From Candidatus Iainarchaeum sp. (GTDB lineage Archaea > Iainarchaeota > Iainarchaeia > Iainarchaeales > JAZDEL01): 32,000 nt of DNA. Position numbers and translations under genes: made by a program. The notes under the pieces were generated by a model. It was not told the DNA's origin, made no database searches, and saw only the letters and a list, made by a program, of their open reading frames with translations. The DNA is taken from assembly GCA_043808785.1 (NCBI GenBank), contig JAZDEL010000006.1, positions 81,831 to 113,830 on the forward strand, written 5' to 3'. Below are positions 11,171 to 28,171 of this stretch, one piece after another. The stretch's first letter is position 1. Every line of letters starts with the position of its first letter.

Positions 11171-11893
11171 TCACGCACCATCAGTAAGCACCTTCAGCCC
11201 CGCATTTTCCAGCAGTTCCTTTGCAGCACACATCTCACTATTTGTAGGGGCTCGAACTCCTTTTAAGGGGAATTTCAGCCCTATCTCCGTCCATTTCCTT
11301 TCGCCGAGCGCACTGTAAGGCAGCAGTTCAACGCACTCCAGCATTTCAAGGGTTTTCGCAAACTCCGCGAGCGCGGCAATATCCGCTTCGGCATCCGTGA
11401 AGCCCGGAACAACCACATAGCGCAGCCTTACGGGCCTGCGCGCCGCGGCAAAGCGTATGTTCGCGAGCGCCTCCCCGTTGCTCCTGCCCGTTATTTCGCG
11501 GTGCCTTTTATCGTCCATATGCTTCACGCTGCACATGAACAGGCTTGTGTAAGGCAGCACGGTTTCGACCGCGGACCTGTCCGCGTACATGCACGAATCC
11601 AGCGCGGTGTGTATTCCGCGTTCGTTGCAGCGCCTCATCACTTCGGCAACGAACCCGGCCTGCATAAGCGGCTCGCCCCCGGAGAAGGTAACGCCGTTTA
11701 TGTACCGCACGCTGCGCTCTATGCCGAGGAACAGTTCCGTTGCAGACATCTTCTTCCCGCCCTTCCCCGCCGCAACATCTATGTTCTGGCAGAACTTGCA
11801 CCTGAGGGGGCAGCCCTGCATGAAAATAACATAGCGCCTTCCCGGGCCGTCAAGGGTGCCGAAACTTTCGACAGAGTGGACCAAACCCTGCAT
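11171..11893 (-). CDS. pflA: pyruvate formate-lyase activating enzyme (radical SAM)
   Basis: VESFGTLDGPGRRYVIFMQGCPLRCKFCQNID contains the CxxxCxxC cluster. Lies immediately downstream of pflB. Confidence 0.9.
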   Translation of the reverse strand: MQGLVHSVESFGTLDGPGRRYVIFMQGCPLRCKFCQNIDVAAGKGGKKMSATELFLGIERSVRYINGVTFSGGEPLMQAGFVAEVMRRCNERGIHTALDSCMYADRSAVETVLPYTSLFMCSVKHMDDKRHREITGRSNGEALANIRFAAARRPVRLRYVVVPGFTDAEADIAALAEFAKTLEMLECVELLPYSALGERKWTEIGLKFPLKGVRAPTNSEMCAAKELLENAGLKVLTDGA

Positions 11894-11921
11894 GCGAAAC
11901 CACGCCGCGGTTTTTTTATTT

Positions 11922-14177
11922 TTATATTTTCTCGTGGAACGAGCGGTTAATCACTTCCAGCTGCTGCTCCCTGCTCAGCCTGCTGAAATTCACCGCGTAA
12001 CCGCTAACCCTTATGGTAAGCAGCGGATATTTTTCAGGATGCGCCATCGCGTCCTTAAGCATCTCCCTGTTCAGCACGTTCACATTTATGTGCTGCGCCC
12101 CCTTTGCGAAATAGCCCTCAAGCAGCCCTGCAAGGTTTTCAACGCGCTCATCCGCGCCTTTCCCGAGGCCCTCCGGCACGACAGAGAACGTGTTGCTTAT
12201 CCCGTCAAGGCAGCTACTGTATGGCAGTTTCGCCACGGAGTTGAGCGAAGCCACTGCTCCGCAGCAGTCCCTTCCGTGCATCGGGTTCGCGCCCGGAGCG
12301 AAAGGCTCGCCCGCCCTTCTCCCGTCCGGCGTTGCCCCTGTCTTCTTCCCGTACATCACGTTGGACGTAATCGTAAGTATGCTCAGCGTGTGCTCCGCGT
12401 GCCTGTATGTGGGGTACTTCTTCAGGAACTGGTTAAACCCGACAACGCCCTCCACTGCAATATGGTCCGCCCTAGCATCGTCATTCCCGTAGCAGGGGAA
12501 TTTCCCCTCCACAACAAAGCCTGTTGCTATTCCGCGCGCGTCCCTTACAGGCTTCACTTTCGCATACTTTATCGCGGAGAACCCGTCCGCAAGCACGCTC
12601 AGCCCCGCAAGCCCGAACGCCATATACCTTTTCACCTTCGTGTCGTGCAGTGCCATCTGCAATGCCTCGTAATTGTATTTGTCGTGCATCGCGTGAATTA
12701 TGTTCATTGCCTCCACGTAGTTCTTCGCAACCCAGTCGGCGAGAACCAAAAAGTTGTTCTTGACCTCGTCGTAATCCAGGTATTCGCCCTGCGGCAGAGG
12801 CACCTGCGGCGCAATCTGCTCCCCGGTAATTTCGTCCTTTCCCCCGTTAATCGCGAGCAGCAGCAGCTTCGCCCCGTTGCACCTCGCGCCGAAGAACTGC
12901 ATCTCTTTTCCCGTGCGCATAGCGGAAACGCAGCACGCTACGGAGTAATCGTCCGAAAAATACGCGCGCATCAGGTCGTCGTTCTCGTACTGTATGGATG
13001 AAGTTTCTGTCGAAACCTTTGCCGCAAACTTCTTGAACTCCGCAGGCAGCGCGCTGCTCCAGAGCACGGTTAAGTTCGGCTCGGGCGCAGCGCCCAGATT
13101 GCGCAATGTCTGCAAAAACCTGTAGCTTGTCCTGCTCACAAGCGGCTCGCTGCTTGCCCCGCCAAGGCAAACCGTAACCCAGTTCGGGTCCCCCGCAAAT
13201 ATTTCGCCGTACTCCTTGGGGCGAAGATGCCTTACAAGGCGCATCTTGATTACTATCTGGTCAACCAGTTCCTGCGCCCCGGCTTCGCTTAATTTTCCCG
13301 CGTCCATATCCCGCCTTATGTAAATATCGAAGAACGAATCAGGCCTTCCGAAGCTCATTGCAGCGCCGTCCTGCTCCTTCACCGCGGCAAGGTAAGCAAG
13401 CCAGGCCCACTGCACGCATTCCCGTGCGTCCTTTGCAGGCTTCCCTATATCGAACCCGTACGATTTCGCCATTTCCTTAAGTTCATGCAGTGCCGCAATC
13501 TGGTTAGCAACCTCCTCCCTCAGGAACGGCCCGTTTGCGTCCATCTTCGCGAGATCCTTTTCCTTTTCCCCAATAAGCCTGTCAACTCCGTAAAGCGCCA
13601 CACGCCTGTAATCCCCTATAATCCTCCCCCTGCCGTAGTTGTCGGGCAGTCCGGTTATCACGCCCGCACTCCGCAGTTTCTTTATCCCTTCAGTGTACGC
13701 GTCAAACACGGCATCGTTATGCGTCTTCCTGTGTTTGGTGAAAATTTCCTTAACCTCCGGGTTCAGTTCAACCCCGTATTCCCCGCACGCCTTCTCAACA
13801 AGGCGTATTCCGCCCTTCGGCTTTATCGCCCTTACCAGAGGCTTCTCGGTTTGCAGGCCGACAATAACCTCGAGCCCCTTTTCAATATAGCCGGGCGCGT
13901 GCGAATTTACAGTTGACGGCTTTGAGCAGTCAATCCCAAGCACGCCGCCCTTTTCCGCCTCCTCTTTCAAGAGTCCCAGGCACCTTCCCCAAAGCTCTTT
14001 TGTGCGTTCGCTCTTGCACTGCAGGAATTCCACACTCCCCAAATAAGGCACATGGTTCTTCTGTATGAAATCCCTTACATCAATAGTGCGCCGCCACTGC
14101 CCCGCATTGAAGCCGCGCCATTCACTAACCTCTTCTGCGGAAGCAATTGCCTGCTGTACGTCGTGCCTATTCTGCAT
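11922..14177 (-). CDS. pflB: pyruvate formate-lyase (formate C-acetyltransferase, glycyl radical enzyme)
   Basis: 751 aa. Active-site [22 protein letters not shown] and glycyl-radical motif [11 protein letters not shown] are both present. The N-terminus ([12 protein letters not shown]) is typical of PflB. Confidence 0.95.
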
Positions 14178-15031: not shown

Positions 15032-15618
15032 GGCAAACGCCTCACGAGTTTAGGCTTGAATTTGATGTCGTTGAGTTTGTTTAACACCTCTTTATGTCGC
15101 CTAATTAGCTGTGCCCTCAGGTTTCCGCCCCACAGTTGCTGCGAACTGAACTTTTTTCCTAACTCCCCCAATTCCAGCCTCAGCTCTGGCTCCCTTCGCT
15201 TATCGGGCGGAAGTTTGCCTAATTCCTCAAAGACACGCCAACGCTCCTTGTCAATCGGCGACTGGATGTGTGTTGGTTTGCCCCATGCATCTATCCCGGA
15301 CATGCTTTTGAAGTAGTTCCGCTCCTCCTTTCGCATTGACCCGATGAACTTTCCACTCTTCTCAGGGTTGCCCAGCTCGGTCGGAATATCGCGGCATTCA
15401 AATTTAGCCCCATTGTAGCCGCCCAAAAAAGCGCCGCCTTCTTTGCTATACAGCCCCGAATGAATAATTTTTTTGCCCGTACTCGCTTTAGTGCAAGGGA
15501 TAACAATCCAATCAGGCCTAATCGCCACGATGTTCTTCGTGCATGCCCGCAATTTAGCCGCACATCGTTCATAGTGCAGCCCCTCATCGAACAGCATCAC
15601 AGTTAGCCCTTTTCTCAC
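15028..15618 (-). CDS. hypothetical protein (no recognisable family)
   Basis: 196 aa ORF. Its GTG start overlaps the upstream stop (GTGA), and an alternative ATG lies at 15597. Its stop overlaps the nadK start (ATGA). Codon usage is richer in A/T endings than in either neighbour. Confidence 0.5.
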   Translation of the reverse strand: MRKGLTVMLFDEGLHYERCAAKLRACTKNIVAIRPDWIVIPCTKASTGKKIIHSGLYSKEGGAFLGGYNGAKFECRDIPTELGNPEKSGKFIGSMRKEERNYFKSMSGIDAWGKPTHIQSPIDKERWRVFEELGKLPPDKRREPELRLELGELGKKFSSQQLWGGNLRAQLIRRHKEVLNKLNDIKFKPKLVRRLP

Positions 15619-17009
15619 GTTCCCGCCTCCTCGGCAATCGCCCTTGCAGCAGCCCTGCCGTCCCTGATTGCCTCAATCGCGGTGCGCGGCCCAGTAACAG
15701 CATCGCCCGCAGCATAAACCCGCGCAACGGAAGTGCGGAACTTTTCATCAACCTTTATGTTGCCCTTTTCATCAAGTTCAATCCCCGCATCATTCATCTG
15801 CTGCACAGCCGAAGCCTGCCCGCATGCAATAACCGCCCAACTTGCGGATATTTTTTTTGTTTCCCCAGTAGGCTCAGGCTTCGAGCGCCCGCTGCTGTCA
15901 GGCTTGCCAAGGCGCATGCGCTCGAACAAAACCGCGGTTAGTTTGTTTTTTTCTTTTCCGCCGCCCAGAAATTCCCCGGGTGAGAGCAAAAATTCGAATT
16001 TCACGCCCTCCTTTTTCGCGTGCTCCAGCTCAAGAGCGCGGGAAGGCATCTCCTTTTCGGTGCGCCTGTAGGCAACAACCGCCTCCGCCCCTGCGCGGGC
16101 GGCAACCCTCGCGGCATCCATCGCGCTGTTCCCCCCGCCTATAATCAGAACTGTTTCGCCCTTTTTCAGCTTCAGCCCCCCCCATTTCTCCCCCTGCAGG
16201 AATGCCAGGGCGCCTATTACGCCCTCTGTTCCTTCTCCCTTCGCGCCGAGGCACATATCCTCCCCCGCGCCAATTCCCAAAAACACAAAGCCAAACCTGC
16301 CCAGCAGCGCCTTTACCGAGGTTATCTTCCTCCCCGCCTCGAACATGACGCCCATCTCGCGCAGGTTTTGCACTTCCCTCTCGACAACAATCCCCGCGAG
16401 CCTGAAATCGGGAATCATCTGCCCCGCAATTCCCCCGAACTTTCCCCTCTGCTCGAAAACCGTAACCCCAAAGCCGCGCAGAGCGAGCTCATAGGCGCAT
16501 GCCAAACCCGCAACTCCCGAACCCACAACCGCAACCGAACCAACCACTGCCGCGGTTTTGTTTGTTTTTTTTCCGCCAGCAGCAGCGGAACCAACCGCGG
16601 CGGCGGTTTTGTTTTTGTTTGTTTTTTTTCCGCCCGCGGATTTTGATTTTTTTATTTTTTCCGTTATTTTCTTCCGCTCATACTCGGCAAGGAACTCCTC
16701 CAATTTGCCTATCCTTATCGCCTTCCCCGCCCCTGCAAGCACGCACGCGCCCTCGCACTGCCTCTCCTGCGCGCAGATGCGCGAGGTTATGGAGGGGAAA
16801 GGGTTGACGCCCCTGACAAGCGCGAGCGCAGAGTCAAATTTGCGCTCCGCTATAAGCCGATTCACCTCCTTTATCGGCCTGTGCGCGGGGCAGCCCTGCT
16901 CGCACAGGGGAACAGCACACTGCAGGCAGCGCTTCGCCTCGGCTACCGCCTCTTCCTCGGTGTAAACCCTGCCCGAATTGCAGGTTTTATCCTTATTGCG
17001 CCCGACCAT
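15615..17009 (-). CDS. GltD/SudA/NfnB-like NAD(P)H-dependent FAD oxidoreductase (glutamate synthase small-subunit family)
   Basis: N-terminal Fe-S region CLQCAVPLCEQGCPAHRPI...RICAQERQCEGAC, then Rossmann motifs VAVVGSGVAGLACA and LIIGGGNSAMDAAR, and C-terminal VYAAGD. The ATG at 17009 lies 25-32 nt downstream of a TATA box. The track start at 17030 is GTG. Confidence 0.85.
   Translation of the reverse strand: MVGRNKDKTCNSGRVYTEEEAVAEAKRCLQCAVPLCEQGCPAHRPIKEVNRLIAERKFDSALALVRGVNPFPSITSRICAQERQCEGACVLAGAGKAIRIGKLEEFLAEYERKKITEKIKKSKSAGGKKTNKNKTAAAVGSAAAGGKKTNKTAAVVGSVAVVGSGVAGLACAYELALRGFGVTVFEQRGKFGGIAGQMIPDFRLAGIVVEREVQNLREMGVMFEAGRKITSVKALLGRFGFVFLGIGAGEDMCLGAKGEGTEGVIGALAFLQGEKWGGLKLKKGETVLIIGGGNSAMDAARVAARAGAEAVVAYRRTEKEMPSRALELEHAKKEGVKFEFLLSPGEFLGGGKEKNKLTAVLFERMRLGKPDSSGRSKPEPTGETKKISASWAVIACGQASAVQQMNDAGIELDEKGNIKVDEKFRTSVARVYAAGDAVTGPRTAIEAIRDGRAAARAIAEEAGT
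16536..16634. repeat. imperfect tandem duplication (~45-48 nt units) inside the GltD-like CDS, encoding GGKKTNK(NK)TAA(A/V)VGS twice
   Basis: Plus-strand units are cgaaccaaccactgccgcggttttgtttgttttttttccgcc and cggaaccaaccgcggcggcggttttgtttttgtttgttttttttccgcc. The protein reads ...SAGGKKTNKNKTAAAVGSAAAGGKKTNKTAAVVGSVAVVGSG. Confidence 0.8.
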
Positions 17010-17033
17010 ATACCAAACCTTCCCGCACACACG

Positions 17034-17070: not shown

Positions 17071-17586
17071 ATGCCCGCAAAAGGTAAAAAAATCCTGTTC
17101 GTAATCGCCCCTAAAAATTTCCGTGACGAGGAGCTTTTCCACCCCAAGGAGGAACTTGAGAAAGCGGGCGCAGTATGCGCAATCGCAAGCACAAAAATAG
17201 GCGTCTGCAACGGCACGCTTGGCGGAACCGCTGACGCAAAAACCCTTGTCGAGGAAGCCAACCCCGCGGATTTCGATGCAGTGGTTTTTGTCGGCGGCTC
17301 AGGCTCGAGCGTTTATTTCGACGACGAGGATGCGCACAAGCTTGCGAGGAAGTTTGCGGAGCAGGGCAAGGCTGTTGCGGCAATCTGCATAGCCCCGAGC
17401 ACTCTCGCAAACGCGGGCCTGCTGAAGGGAAAGAAAGCGACGGCATACCCTTCCGAAAAAGACAACTTGGTTTCAAAGGGCGCAAAGTTCACCGGCAAGG
17501 GCGTCGAGGCGGACGGAAAAATAGTAACCGCGGACGGCCCCAAGAGCGCCCGCGATTTCGGGAAGAAGATTGCGGCGTTGCTGTGA
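17071..17586 (+). CDS. DJ-1/PfpI family protein
   Basis: 171 aa. KKILFVIAPKNFRDEEL...AVVFVGGSG...AVAAICIAPSTLANAGLL contains the nucleophile-elbow Cys. Confidence 0.85.
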   Translation: MPAKGKKILFVIAPKNFRDEELFHPKEELEKAGAVCAIASTKIGVCNGTLGGTADAKTLVEEANPADFDAVVFVGGSGSSVYFDDEDAHKLARKFAEQGKAVAAICIAPSTLANAGLLKGKKATAYPSEKDNLVSKGAKFTGKGVEADGKIVTADGPKSARDFGKKIAALL

Positions 17587-17692: not shown

Positions 17693-19054
17693 ATGCTTAT
17701 GGGCTTCCTTGATTCCCTCCTTGATTTCCTGAACTCGATTTTCGGCAGGCGCCCGCAGCGCGGCGCAGCTGCAAGGCAGATTGTCCAGCGCGCGAAGCCC
17801 GTTACTCTGGAAGAGGCGCGGCAGCTCGCGGAGGAAAAATCCAAAACAAGCTTCGACGAATTGGAACGCGTAGCCTTTGCGCGCTTTGCGGAGATAAAGC
17901 ACCTCCTCACGGAAATAAAAAACGAGCTCAATAATTTCGAGTCCCGCAACCTCGAGGAGGAGGAAGGGAACCAGCGCCTTCGCAAAATTGTGGAAACAAG
18001 CAAGCGCAACCTCACAAGGCAGATGCACACACTCGCGGAAAAACTATCCCCTCCAGAATCGCACGAGTATGCAGTGCTCCGCCAGTACTGCCTCAACTCA
18101 AGCGCAATCCTTTCCGAGGAAGTGAACACCTTCGGCAGGAACGTGATGTACACAGGCATCCTTATGAAAAAAGAGGTGAAAAACCTCGGCGGATATATAA
18201 ATGAACTTAACACAATCTTCCTCGGCCTTAAAACAATGTTCGAGTCCGGCGGCACGGGAAAGGCGCTCTCGGCAAAAAGCAGCCTTAAGCAATTGCAGCG
18301 CGCACTCGACGAAAGGGAACTGATCCTCAAGGACGCGAGAGCGGTTAAAGGGCACCTTGCAGCGCTCACGGAAGAAAGGCGTGCAAAGGAAGCCGCATTA
18401 AGCGCAACGCGTGATTCTGCTGACGCAAAGGAACTCGGCGTGCTGGAGGCAAAAAAGGCAAGCCAATTGAGGGAAAAACAGGAACTCAAAAACAAGTTCA
18501 TAAATCTCCTTGCGCCCATAGACAGGCCGCTGAACAGGTTCATGAAGCTTGCTGAAAGCGGCGCATACCCGCTCAGCGACGCCGAGCGCGCCCTCCTTAA
18601 CGCATACATGACAAACCCTTTCCACGCGGCAAAGCAGGACCCCAAGGCGCAGATGCTGAAGAAAATGCTCAAGGAAGTCGAAAACCTCGTGCATGAGGAG
18701 AAGATAAAGCTCAAGGAAAAGGAAGCCGCAAAAATGCTGCGCTCAATAGCCGAACTGCAGGACTATGATTTCTTCGGAGAACTTTTCTGGAGGCTCAACT
18801 CAATAGATGTCGAACTCATTGCAACGGAAAAAAGCATAGCCACCTCAAAGGCGGGTTCCGCAATAATGGCGCTCGAGCGCGAGATAAGGAACCTGGACAG
18901 GGCATACTCCGAGCAGGGTGCACTCCTTAAGGCGGAGGAGCAGAAACTCCTTTCAAAGGACGATGAAATCGCCGGCTTCAGGGAAAGCGCGGAAACCATG
19001 CTGCAGGGCCTTGCGGGAACGCCAGTTGCGATAAAAGTCCCTGCCGATAGCTAA
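17693..19054 (+). CDS. long coiled-coil protein with N-terminal amphipathic helix; function unknown
   Basis: 453 aa, rich in E/K/L/A. The N-terminus is MLMGFLDSLLDFLNSIFGRR. The 347 aa antisense ORF (17671-18714) is S/F/L-rich, which is typical of a shadow frame. Confidence 0.6.
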   Translation: MLMGFLDSLLDFLNSIFGRRPQRGAAARQIVQRAKPVTLEEARQLAEEKSKTSFDELERVAFARFAEIKHLLTEIKNELNNFESRNLEEEEGNQRLRKIVETSKRNLTRQMHTLAEKLSPPESHEYAVLRQYCLNSSAILSEEVNTFGRNVMYTGILMKKEVKNLGGYINELNTIFLGLKTMFESGGTGKALSAKSSLKQLQRALDERELILKDARAVKGHLAALTEERRAKEAALSATRDSADAKELGVLEAKKASQLREKQELKNKFINLLAPIDRPLNRFMKLAESGAYPLSDAERALLNAYMTNPFHAAKQDPKAQMLKKMLKEVENLVHEEKIKLKEKEAAKMLRSIAELQDYDFFGELFWRLNSIDVELIATEKSIATSKAGSAIMALEREIRNLDRAYSEQGALLKAEEQKLLSKDDEIAGFRESAETMLQGLAGTPVAIKVPADS

Positions 19055-19088: not shown

Positions 19089-19862
19089 CTACTCTATCTT
19101 CACAACCTTGTCGCAGAACTGGCTTATTGTCTGCAGTATCCCCGAATACTCGTCCGAGCGCACGAAGATAAGCACGCCCTTGACCCTGTTCTGGTTTGCT
19201 TTCCCTATAAGCGAATGCGTGAACTTCTTCACACCCTCCGCGGAATTATACACAAGCAGCGTTGATACGGAATCCAGAATAAGGAATTTCTTGTTCTGCT
19301 GTATTGCGCCCATTTTCTTCTCAATTGCAAGCATAAGGTCCGTAAGTTCCGCAGCGGAATTTATGTATGTGACATTCCGCTCCCTTAGCATGACCCCTTC
19401 GGACATCCTTGTGACTACATCTATGAAATCTATGCCCTCCCACTTGATGCCGCGCTTCTCAAGCTCCTCTTTCGTTTTTTCGTAGCTCTTGTTCACGCAG
19501 ACATATACGCCAGGCATTTTCTCCGCATTGACGAAACGCCTGAGCAGGCCTATCCTCATTTCCCCGTATTCCTCCGGCTCGACAATGGCAAGCACGCAGT
19601 AGTTCCCCTTGAGGTCGCCGAGCCCCCTCTCGATCTTGACATCCATTTTCGAATCAGGGCTGAGCAGGCGCCTTACCTGCTCGTCCTCTATGTCATCCAT
19701 ATTTTCGAGGTCCAGCAGTTCGGCCGCGGCCGCCCGTTTTAATTTCGCGGCATCGCCAAAAACTTTTGGCGCCCCTTCTTCGGCCTTCTTGCCCGCCGCC
19801 TGCCCGGCATTTTTTCCCGAACCCTTTGCCGCGGCCTTTTCACTAACCTTTGCCGCAGGCAT
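19089..19862 (-). CDS. KaiC/RecA-fold paralogue without Walker A (DUF835/MEDS-like), with basic disordered N-terminus
   Basis: 257 aa. No GxxGxGK[ST] motif. It keeps a Walker-B-like strand, FLILDSVSTLLVYNS..KFTHSLIGK, paralogous to ORF 20778-21731. Its start overlaps the stop of the upstream KaiC-like gene (TGATG). Confidence 0.55.
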   Translation of the reverse strand: MPAAKVSEKAAAKGSGKNAGQAAGKKAEEGAPKVFGDAAKLKRAAAAELLDLENMDDIEDEQVRRLLSPDSKMDVKIERGLGDLKGNYCVLAIVEPEEYGEMRIGLLRRFVNAEKMPGVYVCVNKSYEKTKEELEKRGIKWEGIDFIDVVTRMSEGVMLRERNVTYINSAAELTDLMLAIEKKMGAIQQNKKFLILDSVSTLLVYNSAEGVKKFTHSLIGKANQNRVKGVLIFVRSDEYSGILQTISQFCDKVVKIE

Positions 19863-20647
19863 CAGCCCACTTCCTCGAACAGTTCGGCCTTTGTGAGAAC
19901 CTTTACCCCGTTGTCGGTTATTTGTATTGGTTTCAGCTGTTCCGATATTTCAGTGTTCCGCATCTTCAGTATGCCTATGCTCCTCACAAACCTGTTCCTT
20001 AGCTTGGTGTGGTATAAAAGCAGCACCCCGTCGGCAACATATTCCTCGAGCCCGTAAAGGCTCTGCGTTTTATCCAGTGAAATCTCGCTTGTTATTATGG
20101 TTGTGCAGCCTATCCTCTTGAACATTTTCCCGAGGGAAACAATCCTCTTCCTTGCCTCGAGTTCCCTGTCGAAAAACAGCTTGAAAATTACGCCAGGGTC
20201 TATTACGACCCTTACGGCATTTATGCTCGCCACCGTGTCCTCGACAGCGTTCTTCAGCCTTTCAAAATCGTAAAGTTCTATGGTTATTATCTTCAGCTTC
20301 TCCTGGTCGATAAGTTCCTTAATGTCCATGCCGAACTCGAGCGCGCCGCTCACAATCGCGTCTTCGGTTTCCTCAAGGCTGACATAAACGCCGCTTTCGC
20401 CGTATTTCTTCGCACCCTCGTAAAGGAACTGCAGGCAGAAAACGGTTTTCCCCGAACCGGGGTCGCCACTCAGCACGACAAGGTTCCCCCGCGGTATGCC
20501 CCCTCCTATCATTTCATCAAGCCCGGGTATGCCGGAAAACGTCCTCTCCACAACGCACTTTCCGTCCTTCATACTTATGTTTAGCCTCCTCCCCCCTGGC
20601 TTTTCTGCAGCCGGCTTCGGCGCCCTTTCCGCGGTTTTCTCCTTCAT
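19862..20647 (-). CDS. single-domain KaiC-like (RecA-superfamily) ATPase
   Basis: FSGIPGLDEMIGGGIPRGNLVVLSGDPGSGKTVFCLQFL (Walker A)...RVVIDPG...YVADGVLLLY...RSIGILKMRNTE. The ATG at 20647 lies 26 nt downstream of TATATAAA. The track start at 20716 is TTG. Confidence 0.85.
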   Translation of the reverse strand: MKEKTAERAPKPAAEKPGGRRLNISMKDGKCVVERTFSGIPGLDEMIGGGIPRGNLVVLSGDPGSGKTVFCLQFLYEGAKKYGESGVYVSLEETEDAIVSGALEFGMDIKELIDQEKLKIITIELYDFERLKNAVEDTVASINAVRVVIDPGVIFKLFFDRELEARKRIVSLGKMFKRIGCTTIITSEISLDKTQSLYGLEEYVADGVLLLYHTKLRNRFVRSIGILKMRNTEISEQLKPIQITDNGVKVLTKAELFEEVG

Positions 20648-20672
20648 GCTTGCAATATTATGGCTGATGGGG

Positions 20673-20680
20673 TTTATATA
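20673..20680 (-). promoter_or_regulatory. TATA box (TATATAAA on the minus strand) for the KaiC-like/partner bicistron; leaderless geometry
   Basis: Read directly from the sequence. Its 3' end is 26 nt from the ATG at 20647. Confidence 0.5.
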
Positions 20681-20721
20681 GTTAATTCCGCGGTTTTTTC
20701 CGCAGCCCGCGCCCAAAATTG

Positions 20722-20738
20722 CAAACGTTTTTATATTT
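20722..20738 (+). promoter_or_regulatory. BRE/TATA-like CAAACGTTTTTATATTT upstream of ORF 20778
   Basis: The TATA lies ~40 nt upstream of the ATG, with AAGGTG 8 nt before the ATG. The 14 nt core is identical to the one at 22924-22937 on the other strand. Confidence 0.5.
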
Positions 20739-20777
20739 GCGGTGCGTTATCTTGTTCAGCGGCTTTAAGGTGCCCCC

Positions 20778-21731
20778 ATGCTGACACTTTTAATAATCCC
20801 GAACAAGGAATACCAGGAGGACGTGATGCGCCTCGCAAAGCAGCTGGGCGCGCGCTATGAAAAAATATGCTATGTCAGCCTCAACGAGCTCTACGGCTCC
20901 CTGAAAAAAACTTTTGTCAGGAACGGCATACCCGTGCAGAAATTTTTTGTGGTTGACGCAATAACCCGCAGGACAGACGCATGCAGGAAGCCCGAAGGCG
21001 GCTGCGTTTTCGTCAGTTCGCCCAACTCCCTCATCGAGCTCAGCCTTGCCATAACCGGCGCAATGCGCGCCCAGGGCTCGCAGCTGATGCTTTTCGATTC
21101 CGTCTCAACACTGCTCATTTATGAATCCGTGGACATAGTGACAAAATTCATGCATTCGCTTGTCGGCAAGGTAAAGGAAGCGGGGGCCGACAGCATTTTC
21201 ATCGCCCTGCAGAGCGACATAAACAGCGAAACAGTAAAGGACCTCGAGATGTTCGTCAATGAAACCATCACGATGGACGAGTACAATGTCAGGAACGAGA
21301 TGAAGGAGAAAGCCACGCAGCGTACCCGGATTTCGCAGGTGCCGAAGCCAAATCCCGCAAAGCGGCCAAAACTCGCCCTTAACCCTGGAATGATCGAGGT
21401 CGGGGGCAAGCCTGTGGAAGTTCCCGCAAAGCCGACACTGCCCAGGCCCGCGCCGGTGCCAAAGCCCGCCGTTCCACAAATGCATACGCCCGCGGAAAAG
21501 CCGAAACCGGCCCAAGTGCCAAAGCCTGTGCAGTTCCCGGCGCAGCGGCGGCCAACCGAACCAGCGGCAGCCGTAGCGCAAGCGCCAAAGCCCGCGCAGC
21601 CGCCAAAGAAGCCGCGCGCAAAAAACGGCGTTCCGCAAGCAGTGCGGTCGGAAGAAGAAACGCGGAGTGAAGAAGAGCCGCATGGCGAAGGCGAACCGCG
21701 GGGTGAAGAAGAAAATAAGCAGTACGGCTAA
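20778..21731 (+). CDS. KaiC/RecA-fold paralogue without Walker A (DUF835/MEDS-like), with long Pro/Lys-rich then acidic C-terminal tail
   Basis: 317 aa. The N-terminal ~170 aa are paralogous to ORF 19089-19862 (LMLFDSVSTLLIYESVDIVTKFMHSLVGK). The tail reads PKPNPAKRPK...PAPVPKPAVPQ...KPKPAQVPKPVQFP...PKPAQPPKKPRAK...EEETRSEEEPHGEGEPRGEEE. Confidence 0.6.
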   Translation: MLTLLIIPNKEYQEDVMRLAKQLGARYEKICYVSLNELYGSLKKTFVRNGIPVQKFFVVDAITRRTDACRKPEGGCVFVSSPNSLIELSLAITGAMRAQGSQLMLFDSVSTLLIYESVDIVTKFMHSLVGKVKEAGADSIFIALQSDINSETVKDLEMFVNETITMDEYNVRNEMKEKATQRTRISQVPKPNPAKRPKLALNPGMIEVGGKPVEVPAKPTLPRPAPVPKPAVPQMHTPAEKPKPAQVPKPVQFPAQRRPTEPAAAVAQAPKPAQPPKKPRAKNGVPQAVRSEEETRSEEEPHGEGEPRGEEENKQYG

Positions 21732-21768
21732 AAAGAAAATCGAACCTTTGGCGCAATCACGTGCCCCT

Positions 21769-22899
21769 TTACCTGAACAGTTCCTGGTCTATGTAAACCT
21801 CTATCCCCCGCCCCGTGATTTTGTAGGGCACAATTTTCTTGTCGTGGTTCGATGACCTCAATTTGAGTATCTCGAGCCCGCGCTCCCTCATGTTGTGTAT
21901 GCGTATGTTGTAAAGCACAATGACCCCGTCGGCAAGGAACTCCTCAATGCCGCTCCTGCTGTATACGCCCGGTTCCTGTTCCGTCTCCCCCAGCACTATG
22001 TTCACAGAATTGTATTTCTCAAGCGTTTCGAACAGGTGCCTCAAATACTGCCTGTAAGCCTGCTCATTCTCCATGAACGCAATGCTCAGCGCAGAAAGCG
22101 AGTCGACAACAACCCTGTCAGGCCTGAAAGGCAGGTTCAGCTTGAATGGCAGTTCGATATCGTCGACATCTATATACAATCCGCCGCGCTCCTTTGTAAG
22201 CATCGCCTCCACAGCCCGTGCAATTGTAAGCGGGTCCTGCTTTAGTATTAGCAGTTTGCCCTCGTCCTCCATCCTGTACAAATCCCAGCCGAAGTTCTGC
22301 AGCAGGTTCTCCTTCATTTTTTCCGCGCTCTCCTCAAGGGTTATGTAAACGCAGTGCTCGCCGTGCAGCGCCGCATTGTAAAGCGACTGCATAGCAAATG
22401 TTGTCTTCCCCGTGCCGCACCCCCCGGAAAGCAGTATTGTGTCCCCGCGCTTAAGCCCGCCCCTCTCCACAAGCTTGTCGAAATCGCTCACCCTCAGCGG
22501 CATTATCTCCCTGAACTGCGCCTTTCCCCTACCGCTTGGAAGTTCCGTGTAAGCAATGCCCTTAACCGCACCGCCAGCAGTGTTCCCCGCCGCAGCCACG
22601 TATTCGTAGGTTTGCCCTTCCGCCCCCTCCCCACGCCACTGCCCGCCATCCTCGCCACCGACTATTTTTTCCCTTATTTTCCCGAGCTCGCCCTTCGGCT
22701 TCATGAATCCCGCAAAAAGCCCGCCAAGAACCCCCTTTCCCCTCCCCTTTTCCGCAACAGCCTTTGCCCCCTTTATTATCTGCCCGGCCTCCTCATCGGA
22801 CAGCCCGGCTTCCACAAGGCTTGCCTCAATCTCGGCATCATGTACGCCCTCCTTCAGCATCCTGCCCGCGGCAGAGCGCAGTATCTCGTTTTTTCCCAT
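21769..22899 (-). CDS. KaiC-like ATPase with ~150 aa N-terminal extension (small helical module plus Gly-rich linker)
   Basis: GDTILLSGGCGTGKTTFAMQSLY (Walker A)...RVVVDSLSALSIAF (Walker B)...FLADGVIVLYN...LEILKLRSSNH. The N-terminus reads MLKEGVHDAEIEASLVEAGLSDEEAGQIIKGA. Confidence 0.85.
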   Translation of the reverse strand: MGKNEILRSAAGRMLKEGVHDAEIEASLVEAGLSDEEAGQIIKGAKAVAEKGRGKGVLGGLFAGFMKPKGELGKIREKIVGGEDGGQWRGEGAEGQTYEYVAAAGNTAGGAVKGIAYTELPSGRGKAQFREIMPLRVSDFDKLVERGGLKRGDTILLSGGCGTGKTTFAMQSLYNAALHGEHCVYITLEESAEKMKENLLQNFGWDLYRMEDEGKLLILKQDPLTIARAVEAMLTKERGGLYIDVDDIELPFKLNLPFRPDRVVVDSLSALSIAFMENEQAYRQYLRHLFETLEKYNSVNIVLGETEQEPGVYSRSGIEEFLADGVIVLYNIRIHNMRERGLEILKLRSSNHDKKIVPYKITGRGIEVYIDQELFR

Positions 22900-22923
22900 A
22901 GCACATGATAACTGCTCTATTTG

Positions 22924-22937
22924 TATAAAAACGTTTG
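22924..22937 (-). promoter_or_regulatory. BRE/TATA-like CAAACGTTTTTATA, 25 nt upstream of the ATG at 22899 (leaderless geometry)
   Basis: The minus strand reads GAACAAACGTTTTTATACAAATAG. The core is identical to 20722-20735. Confidence 0.5.
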
Positions 22938-23035
22938 TTCAGGCTCCCGCAGGCTGCGCGCGCAGAACCGAAGGCAGCCGGCAAAACCCGCGCACATTTT
23001 CCGCCTTTGCGCCCGCGCCAGGAATGCCGAGGCGG

Positions 23036-24262
23036 TTATTTCCCCCCTTTCTTCCCCCGCGTGCCCAGTTCCTCAATCCTCTCCTCGATCCTCGTTATCC
23101 TCGCCTTGTATTCCGCAAGCATTTTCTTGTACGCCTTTGCAGGCATTATGCCCTTCCTGAAATATTCGTCCTGCAGCGATTTCATGAGTTCCGAGTTTTT
23201 CGCCCATTCCGCCTCGAGCGACTCGAGCTCGCCGCCCCTTTTTGCCCTGCCGTAAATCCGTGCGGCAATAAATGCGAGCGCCGCAACCAATGCAATTATG
23301 TACGCCGCATATGTTGAAACAAACCACTCCGCCCAGCCTGTTGCAACAGCGTTCACAATCGCCGAACCGGAATTTCCCGCACTGTCCGCAGCGCGTATCT
23401 CGATGCCCATTGCGCCCTCATCCCCGCCCACGGTCATTAAAACTCCGGAATAATCGCCGTTCTCATCCCGCGTGAGTGCGGTTTCCCTGCCGTTAAGGGT
23501 TGCGGAAACAACCGTGCCGCTTGCAGCATCCGCGGCCTTGCCCCCGGAATAACTGGCCCCGACTTTCAGGGGAATTCCCGAACCGAGGCTGAACGACCTT
23601 GCCTTCGGCTCTATAATCTCTATGCCAAGCGCCGCCTTTTCAATTGCAAGCCCTATTGCCGTCTCGCCGCCGCGCTTTTCAGCACCGCTTCCGCTCTCCG
23701 CAACCACAATAACGCTCCACTTTCCCTCCGATGCATCGTAAGGAATTTCGTAATCGAGGTGGTAAATTCCGTTCCCCCTGTTTTCAAGCATTGTCTTTTC
23801 CCCCACGGCATTCCATGTGAAAACCCTGCCGTCGGCAACCCCCTCCCCCGAATCCGTTACCTTCACGCTTATTGTAATGCCCCCCGCCCTTTCATAACTC
23901 CCCCCGGGCGGGCTGAGGAACCTTATTACGTAATATGCGGATTCGTGCACCTGCGCAATGCTCAGCCTTGCTTCCGCAAGTTCCCCGCGGTTTTCAAGGA
24001 AAATTTCCCACTGCCCCGAAGGGTCGAGGTAACCTGTTTCATAACTTGTTTTGAAATATCCCGCCCCTTCGCACACAACCTCGCGCTCGAAAACAACCGC
24101 CCTTTCCCTTGCCGCATACAGCCTGTTTTTTCCCTCCGAGCAGAGCCCCTCTATTGAAATAACTTCCCCCTTTGCGTAAACCTTCTTGTCCGTGGCAATA
24201 TTGAGCGCGGAAACCTGCGCAGCGGCAAAAACCAGCACGGCAATAACCGCCGCAACCCTCAT
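23036..24262 (-). CDS. secreted single-pass membrane protein: signal peptide, beta-sandwich (MG/Ig-like) ectodomain, TM helix, short helical cytoplasmic tail
   Basis: Start chosen at MRVAAVIAVLVFAAAQVSA (ATG 24262, GGGGG 3 nt upstream). TDKKVYAKGEVISIEG is an MG-like strand motif. TM segment is YAAYIIALVAALAFIAARIY. Tail is LQDEYFRKGIMPAKAYKKMLAEYKARI. Confidence 0.7.
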   Translation of the reverse strand: MRVAAVIAVLVFAAAQVSALNIATDKKVYAKGEVISIEGLCSEGKNRLYAARERAVVFEREVVCEGAGYFKTSYETGYLDPSGQWEIFLENRGELAEARLSIAQVHESAYYVIRFLSPPGGSYERAGGITISVKVTDSGEGVADGRVFTWNAVGEKTMLENRGNGIYHLDYEIPYDASEGKWSVIVVAESGSGAEKRGGETAIGLAIEKAALGIEIIEPKARSFSLGSGIPLKVGASYSGGKAADAASGTVVSATLNGRETALTRDENGDYSGVLMTVGGDEGAMGIEIRAADSAGNSGSAIVNAVATGWAEWFVSTYAAYIIALVAALAFIAARIYGRAKRGGELESLEAEWAKNSELMKSLQDEYFRKGIMPAKAYKKMLAEYKARITRIEERIEELGTRGKKGGK

Positions 24263-24278
24263 AGCCCCCGCGCCCAAT

Positions 24279-26039
24279 TCAACGCCCCCTCTCCTTCTCA
24301 ATCTCGGCCTTGTATTTGCCTTCAAGCCCATAATATTCTTCCGCATTCATCGCGCCTTTAAAGTATCTCGCCTGCACGCCTTTAATCTTTTCCTCAAGTT
24401 CCATGGTGCGCCGGTTTCTGGCATTCAATTCCGCAGTGCGTTTTCCCCTTATGAACGTTCGCAGAGCCGCGTATGCCGCAATGCAAAGTGCCGAAACCCC
24501 CGCAAACACAACAACCGGCTGTAACCCTGGTTCAGGCCCTGCGTTTCCCGCAACCTCAACATTATCCCTGGCGCCTTCGCATCCGAACTCCGTGCACAGG
24601 CTTGCAAATTCAATTTCCACGGCAGCCCTGCCCTCCTGCCTCGCCCCTTCCACGTTTTTCACGGCAATAACCCGGCAATCCCCAAACTTTCCACCCTCGA
24701 AATCGGCTGCCCCTGAAAACAAATACCTCCCCCACGCAACCTCCCTAAGTTCGGCGGTGCTGCCGTCTGGATACACGAGCAGTACCTTTGCGCCGTCCAC
24801 TGCGCCGAAGTTCTCGTCAGTTACATCAACAGTGAATTCTATCTTCTCCCCCTCGGCGTAACTTCCATTTTTCAGCCCGCCGATGTCCAGGTTCAGGAAC
24901 GATTTAACCTCTGCAGGGAACATGAATATGCCCTCAACCGCACTTTCGGGGTATTCCCCGCCCTCTTCCCCCATCCCCGATGCGATTATCCTCAGCATTC
25001 CCTCTGGGCTCGCATCCGTGCCCCTATATTCCGCCGCGAACCCCCCATCCACACCGCTCTCCGTCCGCGCGCGCCATACTGCAAAAGCCCCGTTGTTAAT
25101 TTCCAGTTCAAGTTCTGCCGCAATTCCCTTCCCGCCCTTTACAACAGTGCCGCTTATTTTCACCGTGTCGCCCTTTGTGTAATTCTTCCTGTCCGCAGAA
25201 ACGGTTATGTAGAAATCAGGCCTTATTTCATACACACGCTCAGCATGTGCCCTCGCACCGGCAAATTCCGCGTCGATCCCGACAATGTGCGCACCGTATT
25301 CCGCATCCTCGGGCACAATGCCGCTGTTGCCGTACACATTGTCGTTCTCGGCCCCGTCATTGTGCGCGCCGTCGTTGTAAAGCTTCAGTTCCCCGAAAAA
25401 CCCGTTCGCATTCACATCCGCACCGCTCACCCCGAACTCTCCGGCATAAACCGCGGCAGAAATAATGATTTTCCCCCCATGCCATAAATCCGTATTTTCA
25501 TCCCCGAGAATCTCGGCCCTTATCGCCTTTGCGCCGCAATCCGCACCGCAGCTCCCGTAATCCTCCCCCTTCTCGCACCTTGCGTTGCCGCAGCACGCGC
25601 TCGCGCTTACCGCCGCGCATTCCGCACCTATGCACGCCCTTTCCTTGCACTCGCCCGGCAGGGCGCCGGAGCACGAGCCGCAGTCCTGCGGGCAGGTGCA
25701 CGGCGTTTCCCCCACCGAAGCCCTGCACTCCGCGTCCCCGCAGCCTTCCAGGCTGCGGCACTCGGCACTGCAGCCGCCCTTTCCCGCGCAAACATCCGTT
25801 GTTGCGGCAATGCCGTCATCGCAGTCCGCGTCGCCCCTGCACGCAACACTGCACTCCGAATGCGAGCAGTACGCCCCGCAATCCCCCGCACCTATGCACG
25901 CGTCGGTTGTGAGCGGGCTGGCATCATCGCACTCTGCGGATGAAGTGCATGCAGGCACGCATTCCGCATTCGAGTAAACGAAAAAAACCTGCAGTGCACA
26001 AAGCATCAGCAGTACGGCCGCAACATGCCATGTTTTCAT
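24279..26039 (-). CDS. secreted single-pass membrane protein with Cys-rich N-terminal repeats; paralogue of ORF 26036-28171
   Basis: 586 aa. Signal peptide MKTWHVAAVLLMLCALQVFF. About 30 Cys in the first 170 aa, in repeated C..C...(A/D)CDD....T.D.C.G...C units. Motif FFGELKLYNDGAHNDGAEND. TM segment VVVFAGVSALCIAAYAAL. Tail VQARYFKGAMNAEEYYGLEGKYKAEI. ATGA overlap with the upstream paralogue. Confidence 0.75.
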   Translation of the reverse strand: MKTWHVAAVLLMLCALQVFFVYSNAECVPACTSSAECDDASPLTTDACIGAGDCGAYCSHSECSVACRGDADCDDGIAATTDVCAGKGGCSAECRSLEGCGDAECRASVGETPCTCPQDCGSCSGALPGECKERACIGAECAAVSASACCGNARCEKGEDYGSCGADCGAKAIRAEILGDENTDLWHGGKIIISAAVYAGEFGVSGADVNANGFFGELKLYNDGAHNDGAENDNVYGNSGIVPEDAEYGAHIVGIDAEFAGARAHAERVYEIRPDFYITVSADRKNYTKGDTVKISGTVVKGGKGIAAELELEINNGAFAVWRARTESGVDGGFAAEYRGTDASPEGMLRIIASGMGEEGGEYPESAVEGIFMFPAEVKSFLNLDIGGLKNGSYAEGEKIEFTVDVTDENFGAVDGAKVLLVYPDGSTAELREVAWGRYLFSGAADFEGGKFGDCRVIAVKNVEGARQEGRAAVEIEFASLCTEFGCEGARDNVEVAGNAGPEPGLQPVVVFAGVSALCIAAYAALRTFIRGKRTAELNARNRRTMELEEKIKGVQARYFKGAMNAEEYYGLEGKYKAEIEKERGR

Positions 26040-28171
26040 TTTTCACCGCCCCCTTTCCCCGCAGCCCAGCGCCCGCCCTGCGCCCCTCTGGCGTCGCAGG
26101 CGCTGCCCTGCACATTTCCCGTACCGCTCTTCTTCCCCGTGCCCTTGCCGTTTCCCGCCCCTATGAGTGCCAGCGATTTCCTCACATCATCGAGTTCCGT
26201 TTCGCACTCCCCCACAAGCCTGTCGTAATTCGCCTTGTCAAGCGTCGCCTCCCTGAAGAACTGCCTCTGAAACCCCTTAAGTTCGCCAAGCAGCTGCCGC
26301 TCCCTGTTCTTCAGTGTGCCTATCTGCGCACTGCGCCTTTTTGCATAAATAACCGTTGCAGTGGCGACAGCGGCAACAAGCAGAGCCACGATTATGTGCC
26401 CGATATAGCTGCGCAGGTAATGCCATGCGGAAACCCCGGCTATTTCGAACTGCACGCTTCTCGTGCCGCTGTTCCCATATGCATCCTCCGCAGCCACGCC
26501 GAATTCCGCAAGCCCGACATCCTCCGCCCTCACCACATAGCTGCCGGCGTAGACCCCGCGCTCGCTGCTCACCATCCCCACGCCTGTGCCGTTTACGTTC
26601 GCGTCAACCTCGGCGTTTGTTACCGGCTTCCCGTCAGGGTAACTGAGCATTAGCCTGAAATTAATCTGCTCCCCCGCCTCAAAAGTCCTGCCTGCTGGCT
26701 CGGCAACATCTATGGTGAGTGCAGCGGGCTCGACATAAATGTCAAACGAAAACGAACCGCCGTAAACGGTGTTCCTGTCGCTTTTCACGCCGCGGATTTC
26801 GAGAGAATTCTTTCCCACTGGAAAATCCCAGCCGAGGATTATCCTGTTCGAATAAATCCCGCGTACAGCCTCCTTGAACTCGGTCGATTTTCCCGCAGGG
26901 GACAGTAGTGTCGCCTTTGCGCCGCTTATCCCGCTGCCTTCAGCACTCTCGAGCGCCACATTCAGGTCTACGGTATCCCCCCGTTCGTATGCCTTCGCGA
27001 GCCCGTTGAGCACCCGTATCTCAAGCTGGGACGTCGCCTCCGGGCTTATTACCGTGATTTCTTTTTCCGCCGCGCCGACATTGTTTTTCCCATCCCTGCA
27101 CCATATCGACGCAACCCATTTTCCCGTGGGGTTAAGCAGGGTTGTGTGGTATTCCGCACCGAAATTTCCGCCCGCGTCGCTCCGCACTGTGCCCTGCCAC
27201 ACAACACCGCCCCTTGCAAGCAGATTCAGGTCAACGGCGGTTTCAACGCCGACACCGTGCTTCTTTACGGTTCCGCTGATTTTTATTATGTCCCCGGCGC
27301 TGTATTTTTCCCTGTCGGTTTCAAGGGCAACCCCGAGTTCCGCCCTGACAACCGCGGTTTTCGTAATTTTTCCGGTTGCCCCCGCAAACTCCGCCGAAAC
27401 CTCGATATCGTATTCCCCTGCCGCGGCATCGTCCACGAGCGCAACCGAATTTCCGTACCTGCCGTCGTTCTCGGTTCCGTCATTGTGCGCGCCGTCGTTG
27501 TAAAGCTTCAGTTCCCCGAAAAAACCCCTTGCAGTTACCTTCGCCCCGGCAGCCTTTGTTCCGTCGGCAGCCACGCTAACCACAATATCCATTCTGTCGC
27601 CGCGCGCATAGTAATCCTGCCATTCGCCGACAAAAGCGATTTCTACATTTGCAGGCATGCAATCCGCGCTGCAGTTCGCATATTTTTCCCCGGCTTCACA
27701 CCTCCCGTTCCCGCAGCACCCGAGCATTATCGTGCTCACGCACTGCTTCCCCACGCACGCCTTCTCGCCGCACACCCCGGCCTGGGTTTCGCCGCAATCC
27801 CCGCAGTCCTGCGGGCAGGTGCACCTTGTCTCCTCGGCGCTTTCATCGCAGACCCCGTCCCCGCACCCGGAAAGGTGGAAACACGCAGCCTCGCACCTTC
27901 TCGCCCCGGCACACACGTCCTTTGTCGCCGCAACCTTGTCATCGCAATCCGCATCTGTTTTGCACAGCGGCATGCAGTTCAGGTTCGCGCACCCGCTTTC
28001 GCACGTTCCTGTGCGGAAGCAGAGGTCCCACGTATCCGGGTTTCCGTCGTTGCACGCCGCGTCGCTTGAGCACACTATTGCACACTCCTCCGCGTAAGCC
28101 GCCCCCGCGCAGGCAATGGCGACTGCGATAAGCGCCGCCGGAAGCAACAGCCGTGCCGAATCTAAGTTCAT
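26036..28171 (-). CDS. secreted single-pass membrane protein with Cys-rich N-terminal repeats and several beta-sandwich domains; paralogue of ORF 24279-26039
   Basis: 711 aa with the same architecture. Signal peptide LLLPAALIAVAIACAGAAYA. Contains CTCPQDCGDC and FFGELKLYNDGAHNDGTEND. TM segment IIVALLVAAVATATVIY. Tail FQRQFFREATLDKANYDRLVGE, followed by a Gly/Lys-rich end. Confidence 0.75.
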   Translation of the reverse strand: MNLDSARLLLPAALIAVAIACAGAAYAEECAIVCSSDAACNDGNPDTWDLCFRTGTCESGCANLNCMPLCKTDADCDDKVAATKDVCAGARRCEAACFHLSGCGDGVCDESAEETRCTCPQDCGDCGETQAGVCGEKACVGKQCVSTIMLGCCGNGRCEAGEKYANCSADCMPANVEIAFVGEWQDYYARGDRMDIVVSVAADGTKAAGAKVTARGFFGELKLYNDGAHNDGTENDGRYGNSVALVDDAAAGEYDIEVSAEFAGATGKITKTAVVRAELGVALETDREKYSAGDIIKISGTVKKHGVGVETAVDLNLLARGGVVWQGTVRSDAGGNFGAEYHTTLLNPTGKWVASIWCRDGKNNVGAAEKEITVISPEATSQLEIRVLNGLAKAYERGDTVDLNVALESAEGSGISGAKATLLSPAGKSTEFKEAVRGIYSNRIILGWDFPVGKNSLEIRGVKSDRNTVYGGSFSFDIYVEPAALTIDVAEPAGRTFEAGEQINFRLMLSYPDGKPVTNAEVDANVNGTGVGMVSSERGVYAGSYVVRAEDVGLAEFGVAAEDAYGNSGTRSVQFEIAGVSAWHYLRSYIGHIIVALLVAAVATATVIYAKRRSAQIGTLKNRERQLLGELKGFQRQFFREATLDKANYDRLVGECETELDDVRKSLALIGAGNGKGTGKKSGTGNVQGSACDARGAQGGRWAAGKGGGEK

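Follow-up and report, generated by a model that had tools for sequence, protein, structure and literature searches.

KaiC-family ATPases have been proposed as the main signalling hubs of archaea. To our knowledge, almost no archaeal KaiC-family ATPase has a defined partner or output. Inactivated KaiC domains (iKaiC) are reportedly part of the archaeal KaiC signalling network, as set out by Makarova, Galperin and Koonin in mBio in 2017. Here we describe a cluster of four genes in a 32,000-nt stretch of DNA from Candidatus Iainarchaeum sp. (contig JAZDEL010000006.1, positions 81,831 to 113,830; the whole stretch is called the window below). The cluster encodes two KaiC ATPases with predicted complete catalytic sites, KaiC-B and KaiC-D, and two inactivated KaiC-fold proteins, iKaiC-A and iKaiC-C. 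They are called B, D, A and C below, and the helical protein encoded next to A is called cc (Table 1). Comparison with related genomes suggested that each KaiC may act together with its iKaiC as a cytoplasmic switch or scaffold for structures of the cell surface.

Inactivated KaiC-like domains have already been named iKaiC, and the REC-PAS-PAS-DUF835 architecture has been published (Galperin et al. 2018, PMC5847659). A KaiC with an inactivated partner is thus a known kind of system, so the core idea of an initial annotation of the window, in which two active/inactive KaiC pairs were read as a heteromeric ATPase switch, is not new. The iKaiC domains DUF835 and MEDS have a proposed adaptor or signalling role and ties to PAS and REC sensor domains. 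Like them, A and C have a KaiC/RecA fold with a broken ATPase site and are associated with KaiC ATPases, and in Methanomicrobiales the genes of the same family follow PAS-PAS proteins, which can be compared with REC-PAS-PAS-DUF835. Unlike them, A and C fall in the family DUF7504.

Three other systems are close to this locus. The first is the archaellum, where ArlH occurs with ArlI/ArlJ and ArlX/ArlCDE. In loci related to ours, a single-domain KaiC is likewise encoded together with a T2SSE ATPase, T2SSF, pilin-like subunits and helical proteins, and ArlH is a structural neighbour of A. In contrast to the archaellum, B fails the ArlH model, the pilus ATPase of the related loci fails the ArlI model, and T2SSF is encoded by two separate genes. 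The inactivated KaiC partner is not part of the archaellum, and the window holds no pilus genes. The second system is cyanobacterial KaiC with its CI-CII double ring. It also combines two KaiC-fold domains, and B and D align best with the CI half. However, the two domains are on separate polypeptides in our locus, the second one has lost all of the nucleotide-site motifs, B has Glu and Tyr at the CII phosphosites, and neither kaiA nor kaiB was found among the scanned proteins of the window. The third system is the group of KaiC-family genes in or beside archaeal type IV pilus operons of the VirB11/TadC type, which are predicted regulators and mostly have no evident second component (Makarova, Koonin and Albers 2016, PMC4858521). 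Unlike these loci, the loci described here have an iKaiC and a helical protein as constant partners, in DPANN lineages.

In the literature searched, we found no mention of DUF7504. Leaving aside the 2017 mBio paper, the wiring of an iKaiC to a helical protein, to pilus genes or to tail-bearing surface proteins was also not found there. To that extent, we have not found previous descriptions of a division of DUF7504, as an iKaiC family, into KaiC-paired and PAS-linked clades, of the two ancient Iainarchaeia modules, of the constant helical partner or of the tail-bearing surface proteins.

Active and inactivated KaiC-fold proteins

The listing of open reading frames (ORFs) gave the four genes of 19089-22899 with the same limits as the initial annotation. 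The stop codon of B and the start codon of A overlap in TGATG. C and D run towards each other, and their stop codons are 37 nt apart. In existing databases, the proteins of the cluster are labelled 'hypothetical protein' or 'ATPase domain-containing protein'.

B and D matched the Pfam KaiC family PF06745 with 200.8 bits and 173 bits (D over residues 137-372), passing the cutoff of 26.6 bits and covering model positions 3-230 and 5-230 of 231. The Walker A motifs reported before, GDPGSGKT in B and GGCGTGKT in D, are intact. The other catalytic motifs are also present, namely the Glu pair (SLEETE in B and TLEESAE in D), Walker B (VVIDPG and VVVDSL) and the Lys/Arg finger (ILKMRNT and ILKLRSS). 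B aligned with the CI half of KaiC at 121 bits, and this alignment spans Walker A, the Glu pair, Walker B and the finger ILKMRNT. The residues of B opposite the CII phosphosites S431 and T432 are Glu and Tyr. D carries an N-terminal extension of about 135 aa, which consists of a small helical domain and a linker. From these motifs, B and D are predicted to be single-domain, CI-like and catalytically complete KaiC ATPases.

More specific identities were not obtained for the two ATPases. The circadian KaiC models (NCBIfam TIGR02655 and NF006799) were missed by both single-domain proteins (B 154 and D 136 bits versus a cutoff of 408), and the window proteins scanned included no member of the KaiB or KaiA families. 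The identity as ArlH/FlaH was rejected by the NCBIfam model NF052589 (B 52.7 and D 20 bits versus a cutoff of 215).

A and C share the core strand on which the initial annotation was built (FLILDSVSTLLVYNSAEGVKKFTHSLIGK in A and LMLFDSVSTLLIYESVDIVTKFMHSLVGK in C), and neither of them has a P-loop. The identity between A and C is 30% over 169 aa (E 5e-21), and that between B and D is also 30% (E 2e-26); with these E values, both similarities are far beyond chance. The suggestion that A and C belong to DUF835 or MEDS was not borne out. The Pfam family of both is DUF7504 (PF24336; 32.7 bits for A and 36.3 bits for C, cutoff 27), and this domain is also precomputed on their homologues. In the Pfam scan, C reached only 15.3 bits on DUF835 (PF05763), under its cutoff of 33.1, and A gave no match; MEDS (PF14417) matched neither A nor C at E up to 1. 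On PF06745 itself, the two proteins scored near the threshold (C 29.3 bits), over model positions 48-178 (A) and 48-199 (C) of 231.

The P-loop loss that the initial annotation had noticed is real, and the losses are larger than it had stated. In an alignment of 27 relatives, the P-loop site reads P(E/N)xxY. The catalytic Glu is replaced by an invariant Asn, and the last 50 or so residues of the KaiC domain, together with the Lys/Arg finger, are gone. Ten columns are invariant in these 27 sequences from several phyla: N124, D148, D197, S198, T201, L202, L203, Y205, H216 and F249 (A numbering). D197-S198 is a Walker-B-like pair, and the invariant core motif of the family is DSxSTLLxY...H.

The RecA/KaiC fold of A was confirmed by structure prediction. 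In the AlphaFold2 (AF2) model, the core (residues 88-257) has a predicted local distance difference test (pLDDT) score above 90, and the top Foldseek matches are KaiC-like: PH0284 (E 2e-7, root-mean-square deviation 2.7 Å), followed by ArlH/FlaH (4yds) and KaiC CI/CII. PH0284 was also retrieved by sequence with an iKaiC profile (E 0.0046). The core of A is preceded by a conserved helical region (about residues 55-87) and by a basic disordered N-terminus (residues 1-45, isoelectric point (pI) 10.1; pLDDT below 50 in segments 1-3 and 7-37). C is organized the other way round. Its core (residues 1-170) is followed by a Pro/Lys-rich linker (171-285; 27 Pro, pI 11.4) and an acidic end (286-317, pI 4.4). 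Both disordered regions are therefore as the initial annotation had described them. In C orthologues from other Iainarchaeia, which are 530-808 aa long, a small N-terminal helical domain and a Lys/Pro-rich linker precede the iKaiC core, and a coiled coil of about 300 aa comes after it. Taken together, the fold match, the family scores and the motif losses establish that A and C are inactivated KaiC-fold proteins.

The iKaiC family is large. Its profile matched 3502 clusters at 50% identity with E up to 1e-3, and 713 of them with E up to 1e-30. Ten long members of the wider family were checked for fusions, which were to KaiB-like/V4R, WD40 and CheC-like domains or were tandem iKaiC-iKaiC. These fusions fit an adaptor role for iKaiC.

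Without a Walker A, a catalytic Glu and a C-terminal hairpin, A and C could also be functionless duplicates of KaiC, pseudo-enzymes on the way to loss. We consider this extremely improbable. Residues of the family are invariant across phyla, thousands of clusters belong to it, distinct orthologous clades of A-type and C-type proteins are kept, and the predicted core of A is well folded. The conservation of the residues effectively refutes this explanation.

Conservation of the pairs and age of the two modules

A motif scan with one genome per species yielded 79 related loci, which are from Iainarchaeia/Diapherotrites, Micrarchaeota, Aenigmatarchaeota, Woesearchaeota, Altiarchaeales, Methanomicrobiales, Methanosarcinales and Bathyarchaeota. 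Their ORFs were called and then classed by phmmer and hmmsearch; single loci are cited by L numbers. Among 104 DUF7504-like genes, 74 were paired with a KaiC-family gene within 1.5 kb, 23 were unpaired despite adequate flank, and 7 were undeterminable. Pairing, which had been predicted to be conserved in related genomes, is thus kept for 74 of the 97 determinable genes, and it is not universal in the family. Neither of the two refuting outcomes named in the initial annotation was obtained, since A has the RecA/KaiC fold and the pairs recur in relatives.

The pairs are kept in specific arrangements. In about 28 loci, a B-type KaiC gene and an A-type iKaiC gene are co-directional with a spacing of about -22 to +13 nt. 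The full A-B-C-D array is syntenic, together with the surface-protein genes and a phosphoglucomutase gene, in L007 (58% identity) and L008 (44% identity). C and D remain adjacent and convergent even where the orientation of the cassette to the surface-protein genes is reversed.

A neighbour-joining tree of 104 iKaiC cores separated an A-type clade, whose members lie beside the helical protein, from a C-type clade, whose members lie beside a D-type KaiC and surface proteins. Reciprocal phmmer searches gave the same division for the active partners: B-type proteins scored about 350-430 among themselves versus about 80-105 to D, and likewise in the reverse direction. The tandem duplication that the initial annotation had considered is rejected by these two results, which show two old orthologous lineages. 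B-A and D-C are therefore ancient paralogous modules and no product of a recent local duplication.

D and C are further connected by a common domain and a common promoter-like element. A profile of the D-type N-terminal domain picked up the N-terminal ends of the long C-type proteins (E 2e-8 to 2e-5, 5425 ORFs). It also matched small stand-alone proteins encoded just upstream of a B-type KaiC in two loci. The element CAAACGTTTTTATA is found upstream of both C and D, in a similar stretch of about 70 nt, and its two copies are the only 100% complementary inverted pair in 20600-23100. In L007 it is not present upstream of D, and D there overlaps the preceding surface-protein gene. CAAACGTTTTTATA is probably a B recognition element (BRE)/TATA element common to C and D, with a putative promoter function. 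The scan for sigma-70 promoters and intrinsic terminators was uninformative for archaeal DNA. What is observed directly is the fold and the lost motifs, together with conservation, synteny, the common domains and the common promoter element.

Two Methanomicrobiales loci with an unpaired DUF7504 gene were examined (L067:6980-8543 and L072:7052-8615). In both of them, a PAS-PAS gene immediately precedes the DUF7504 gene, and PAS histidine kinases are additional neighbours in L072.

The iKaiC proteins could also be free-standing signalling adaptors like DUF835 and MEDS, which form no complex with KaiC, lie next to it as members of a common regulon and act separately on other partners. The 23 unpaired members, the PAS-PAS proteins and histidine kinases just described, the fusions to KaiB-like/V4R, WD40 and CheC-like domains instead of a P-loop KaiC, and the position of C and D on opposite strands are in favour of this explanation. 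However, about 28 loci have B and A translationally coupled, the adjacency of C and D outlasts the inversion of the cassette, D shares its helical domain with the long C-type proteins, and an identical promoter element is found at C and D. We therefore regard free-standing adaptors as an unlikely explanation.

One variant of the active partner was also seen. In AR10-like Iainarchaeia (L047, L049 and L058; for example L047:6999-7703), the KaiC partner of the DUF7504 protein has a deviant Walker A, GG(S/A/P)GTCKT, in which Cys replaces the last Gly. The Lys/Thr and the catalytic Glu pair are kept.

Association with pilus genes and surface proteins

The helical protein cc is convergent with A, and its homologues are convergent with A-type iKaiC genes in 28 loci. 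It matched no Pfam or NCBIfam family and has no transmembrane (TM) segment. The AF2 model (pLDDT 85) is all-helical and contains long helices, and Foldseek against the PDB gave only generic coiled-coil matches (best E 0.027). Nothing specific was thus obtained from Pfam, NCBIfam or Foldseek that would place cc in a known family. The conserved motifs of cc include EGNKxxRxIVxTS, KLxPP, YLxNP and DFF..FW.LN. It is the third conserved member of the B-A module. In one lineage (L001:3859-5126 and L002:1146-2413), a TnpB gene (Cas12f1-like_TNB) and a 55-aa ORF are inserted right upstream of KaiC-iKaiC-cc.

Of the related loci, 15 have T2SSE and T2SSF genes within 8 kb, and 11 of these include cc. 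The gene order in the 11 loci is T2SSE, T2SSF, T2SSF, pilin, KaiC, iKaiC, cc. The pilin carries a class III signal peptide, and the pilus ATPase is ArlI-like (268 bits, well under the equivalog cutoff of 550). This context suggests a tie between the B-A module and a type IV pilus apparatus.

The D-C module has different neighbours. D borders directly on the surface-protein genes and has the same orientation as these in the window, L007, L008 and L038. The three paralogous surface proteins of the window and their homologues have a C-terminal TM helix followed by a conserved cytoplasmic tail of the pattern (I/L)KxLQxxYFxxGxhxxxxYxxxhxxYxxxL, for which no Pfam family matched. The tail profile scored 73.3, 54.3 and 66.8 bits for surface proteins 1, 2 and 3, and the MG2 domain was matched weakly in the first and with 37.2 bits in the third. 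The same tail, sometimes in several copies, was found in very large proteins encoded beside KaiC/iKaiC pairs in L059, L060, L063 and L073, which are from Methanosarcinales, Woesearchaeota and other archaea. The context suggests a link between the D-C module and tail-bearing surface proteins. A SHOCT-like tail common to C-type iKaiC and surface proteins, which had been considered from a likeness seen by eye, was rejected as unsupported: the tail profile missed the C-type proteins, and Pfam SHOCT matched only one protein with E 0.024 and none of the window tails.

Surface proteins 2 and 3 (24279-26039 and 26036-28171) also have closely related Cys-rich N-terminal modules with repeated C..C....C.D motifs. 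The motifs suggest that these modules may be extracellular domains stabilised by disulfides or metal, which would be unusual in a small anaerobic archaeon.

Because the pairs adjoin pilus genes and membrane-anchored surface proteins in relatives, they look like a cytoplasmic switch or scaffold. We consider it moderately probable that each KaiC (B or D) and its iKaiC (A or C) form an ATP-dependent complex, in which the iKaiC would serve as an adaptor to surface structures. In such a complex, B or D would probably be hexameric, and A or C, predicted to be unable to bind or hydrolyse ATP, would be its partner. The iKaiC keeps a strictly conserved surface, DSxSTLLxY...KFxHxLxGK, and its conserved core may read the state of the KaiC. 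The nucleotide state of the KaiC would then set what the iKaiC adaptor binds, and the variable disordered or coiled-coil arms of the iKaiC would reach the effectors. For B-A with cc (module 1), the effectors would be cc and the base of the pilus, and the module could be accessory to a type IV pilus-like machine, with a function comparable to that of ArlH with ArlCDE/ArlX in the archaellum. For D-C (module 2), they would be the cytoplasmic tails of single-pass, adhesin-like surface proteins. The physical complex of KaiC and iKaiC, the binding of the tails and the direction of signalling are what we infer from this arrangement.

The initial annotation had called the inputs and outputs of the switch unknown. 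They can be narrowed, as the context of B-A points to a type IV pilus apparatus and that of D-C to the tail-bearing surface proteins. The tie to signal transduction which the initial annotation had drawn fits the PAS-linked Methanomicrobiales clade and the fusions to KaiB-like/V4R and WD40 domains.

Several observations weigh against such adaptor complexes. The survey loci were picked by the presence of an iKaiC, and loci with tail proteins or pili but without KaiC/iKaiC are outside the count. The unpaired DUF7504-like genes, which are mostly from one Methanomicrobiales clade, indicate that an iKaiC domain need not have a neighbouring KaiC to work. The scanned ORFs of the 32-kb window included no T2SSE or T2SSF gene, and pilus genes, cc and surface proteins occurred together in none of the surveyed loci. 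The tail profile did not match the C-termini of C-type iKaiC proteins, so a tail-tail interaction domain common to both is unsupported. C of the window is without the coiled-coil arm that many of its orthologues have. A fusion of a P-loop KaiC to an iKaiC, which was sought as a Rosetta stone, was present in 0 of the 10 long family members.

The same genomic context can be read without any switch. B-A-cc could belong to the structure of a pilus or archaellum-like motor, as a stator or ring component equivalent to ArlH with ArlX/ArlCDE, and D-C could be a dedicated ATPase for assembling or anchoring the surface proteins. The gene order in the 11 cc loci, the Foldseek match of A to FlaH (4yds), and the position of D beside and co-directional with the surface-protein genes (window, L007, L008 and L038) would agree with such a role. 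In contrast, B reached only 52.7 bits on the ArlH model (cutoff 215), the pilus ATPase with its 268 bits (cutoff 550) is no bona fide ArlI, the module of the window has no pilus genes nearby, and D has its own promoter-like element in the window. A purely structural role seems rather improbable to us.

The proposed adaptor complexes could be extended to a control of adhesion and pili in DPANN archaea. D-C would be docked on the tails of adhesins and B-A-cc placed at the base of the pilus, and together they would provide an integrin-like, KaiC-based inside-out/outside-in control, in which the iKaiC reads the nucleotide state and links the motor to membrane proteins. This extension is tentative, and we think it doubtful as a whole. 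The set of parts is compact and conserved: an active KaiC, a DUF7504 iKaiC (at least 3500 clusters at 50% identity), a helical protein and tail-bearing membrane proteins. The binding pairs that it offers are therefore concrete and can be tested. If pili and adhesin-like proteins are truly linked to it, this would bear on the way in which small DPANN archaea regulate cell contact and their surface structures. If not, DUF7504 can still be annotated as an iKaiC family with KaiC-paired and PAS-linked clades.

Neighbouring genes and other features of the window

The neighbours of the four-gene cluster include a DJ-1/PfpI gene and a phosphoglucomutase gene. According to family scans, the remaining genes of the window are mevalonate-pathway, pyruvate formate-lyase and cofactor genes. 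The cluster was also considered as an anti-phage defence system, and PADLOC was negative. B and D gave only weak P-loop-level matches to mad8 (20-25 bits), and A, C, cc and surface protein 1 gave no match.

Table 1. Positions of the KaiC/iKaiC cluster, its neighbours and the promoter-like elements in the window
Feature	Positions	Strand	Length	Remarks
DJ-1/PfpI gene	17071-17586			neighbour of the four-gene cluster
Helical protein cc	17693-19054	+	453 aa	no family; convergent with iKaiC-A
iKaiC-A	19089-19862	-	257 aa	ORF listing; DUF7504 (PF24336)
KaiC-B	19862-20647 (from ATG)	-	261 aa	ORF listing; Pfam KaiC PF06745
B/C intergenic region	20648-20777			divergent; two AT-rich TATA-like boxes
AT-rich TATA-like box TTTATATAG	about 20673-20681			facing B
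TATA-like element CAAACGTTTTTATA	20722-20735	+	14 nt	facing C
iKaiC-C	20778-21731	+	317 aa	ORF listing; DUF7504 (PF24336)
KaiC-D	21769-22899	-	376 aa	ORF listing; Pfam KaiC PF06745
Exact copy of CAAACGTTTTTATA	22924-22937	-		upstream of D
Surface protein 1	23036-24346	-	436 aa	signal peptide; Ig/MG2-like ectodomain; C-terminal TM helix; conserved tail
Surface protein 2	24279-26039	-	586 aa	Cys-rich N-terminal region; TM helix; tail motif
Surface protein 3	26036-28171	-	711 aa	Cys-rich region; MG2 domain; TM helix; tail motif

Four further observations were made in the window, all on the minus strand. A 245-aa ORF (2038-2775), flanked in the mevalonate cluster by the AcnX and UbiD-like genes, has a sub-threshold match to the response-regulator receiver domain (24.4 bits versus a cutoff of 30.2). 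A 441-aa ORF with a LAGLIDADG_3 homing-endonuclease domain (6192-7517) lies within an operon of thiolase, HMG-CoA synthase and DUF35-like genes, and it overlaps the end of the thiolase gene by about 40 nt. At 11171-14177, this DPANN genome encodes a pyruvate formate-lyase (751 aa, glycyl radical) and its radical-SAM activase. The protein of 15615-17030 combines Fer4_20 with a GltD-like pyridine-nucleotide oxidoreductase and has an internal Lys/Thr/Ala-rich duplicated insert (GGKKTNKNKTAAAVGS…GGKKTNKTAAVVGS), which is located just before the FAD-binding motif.

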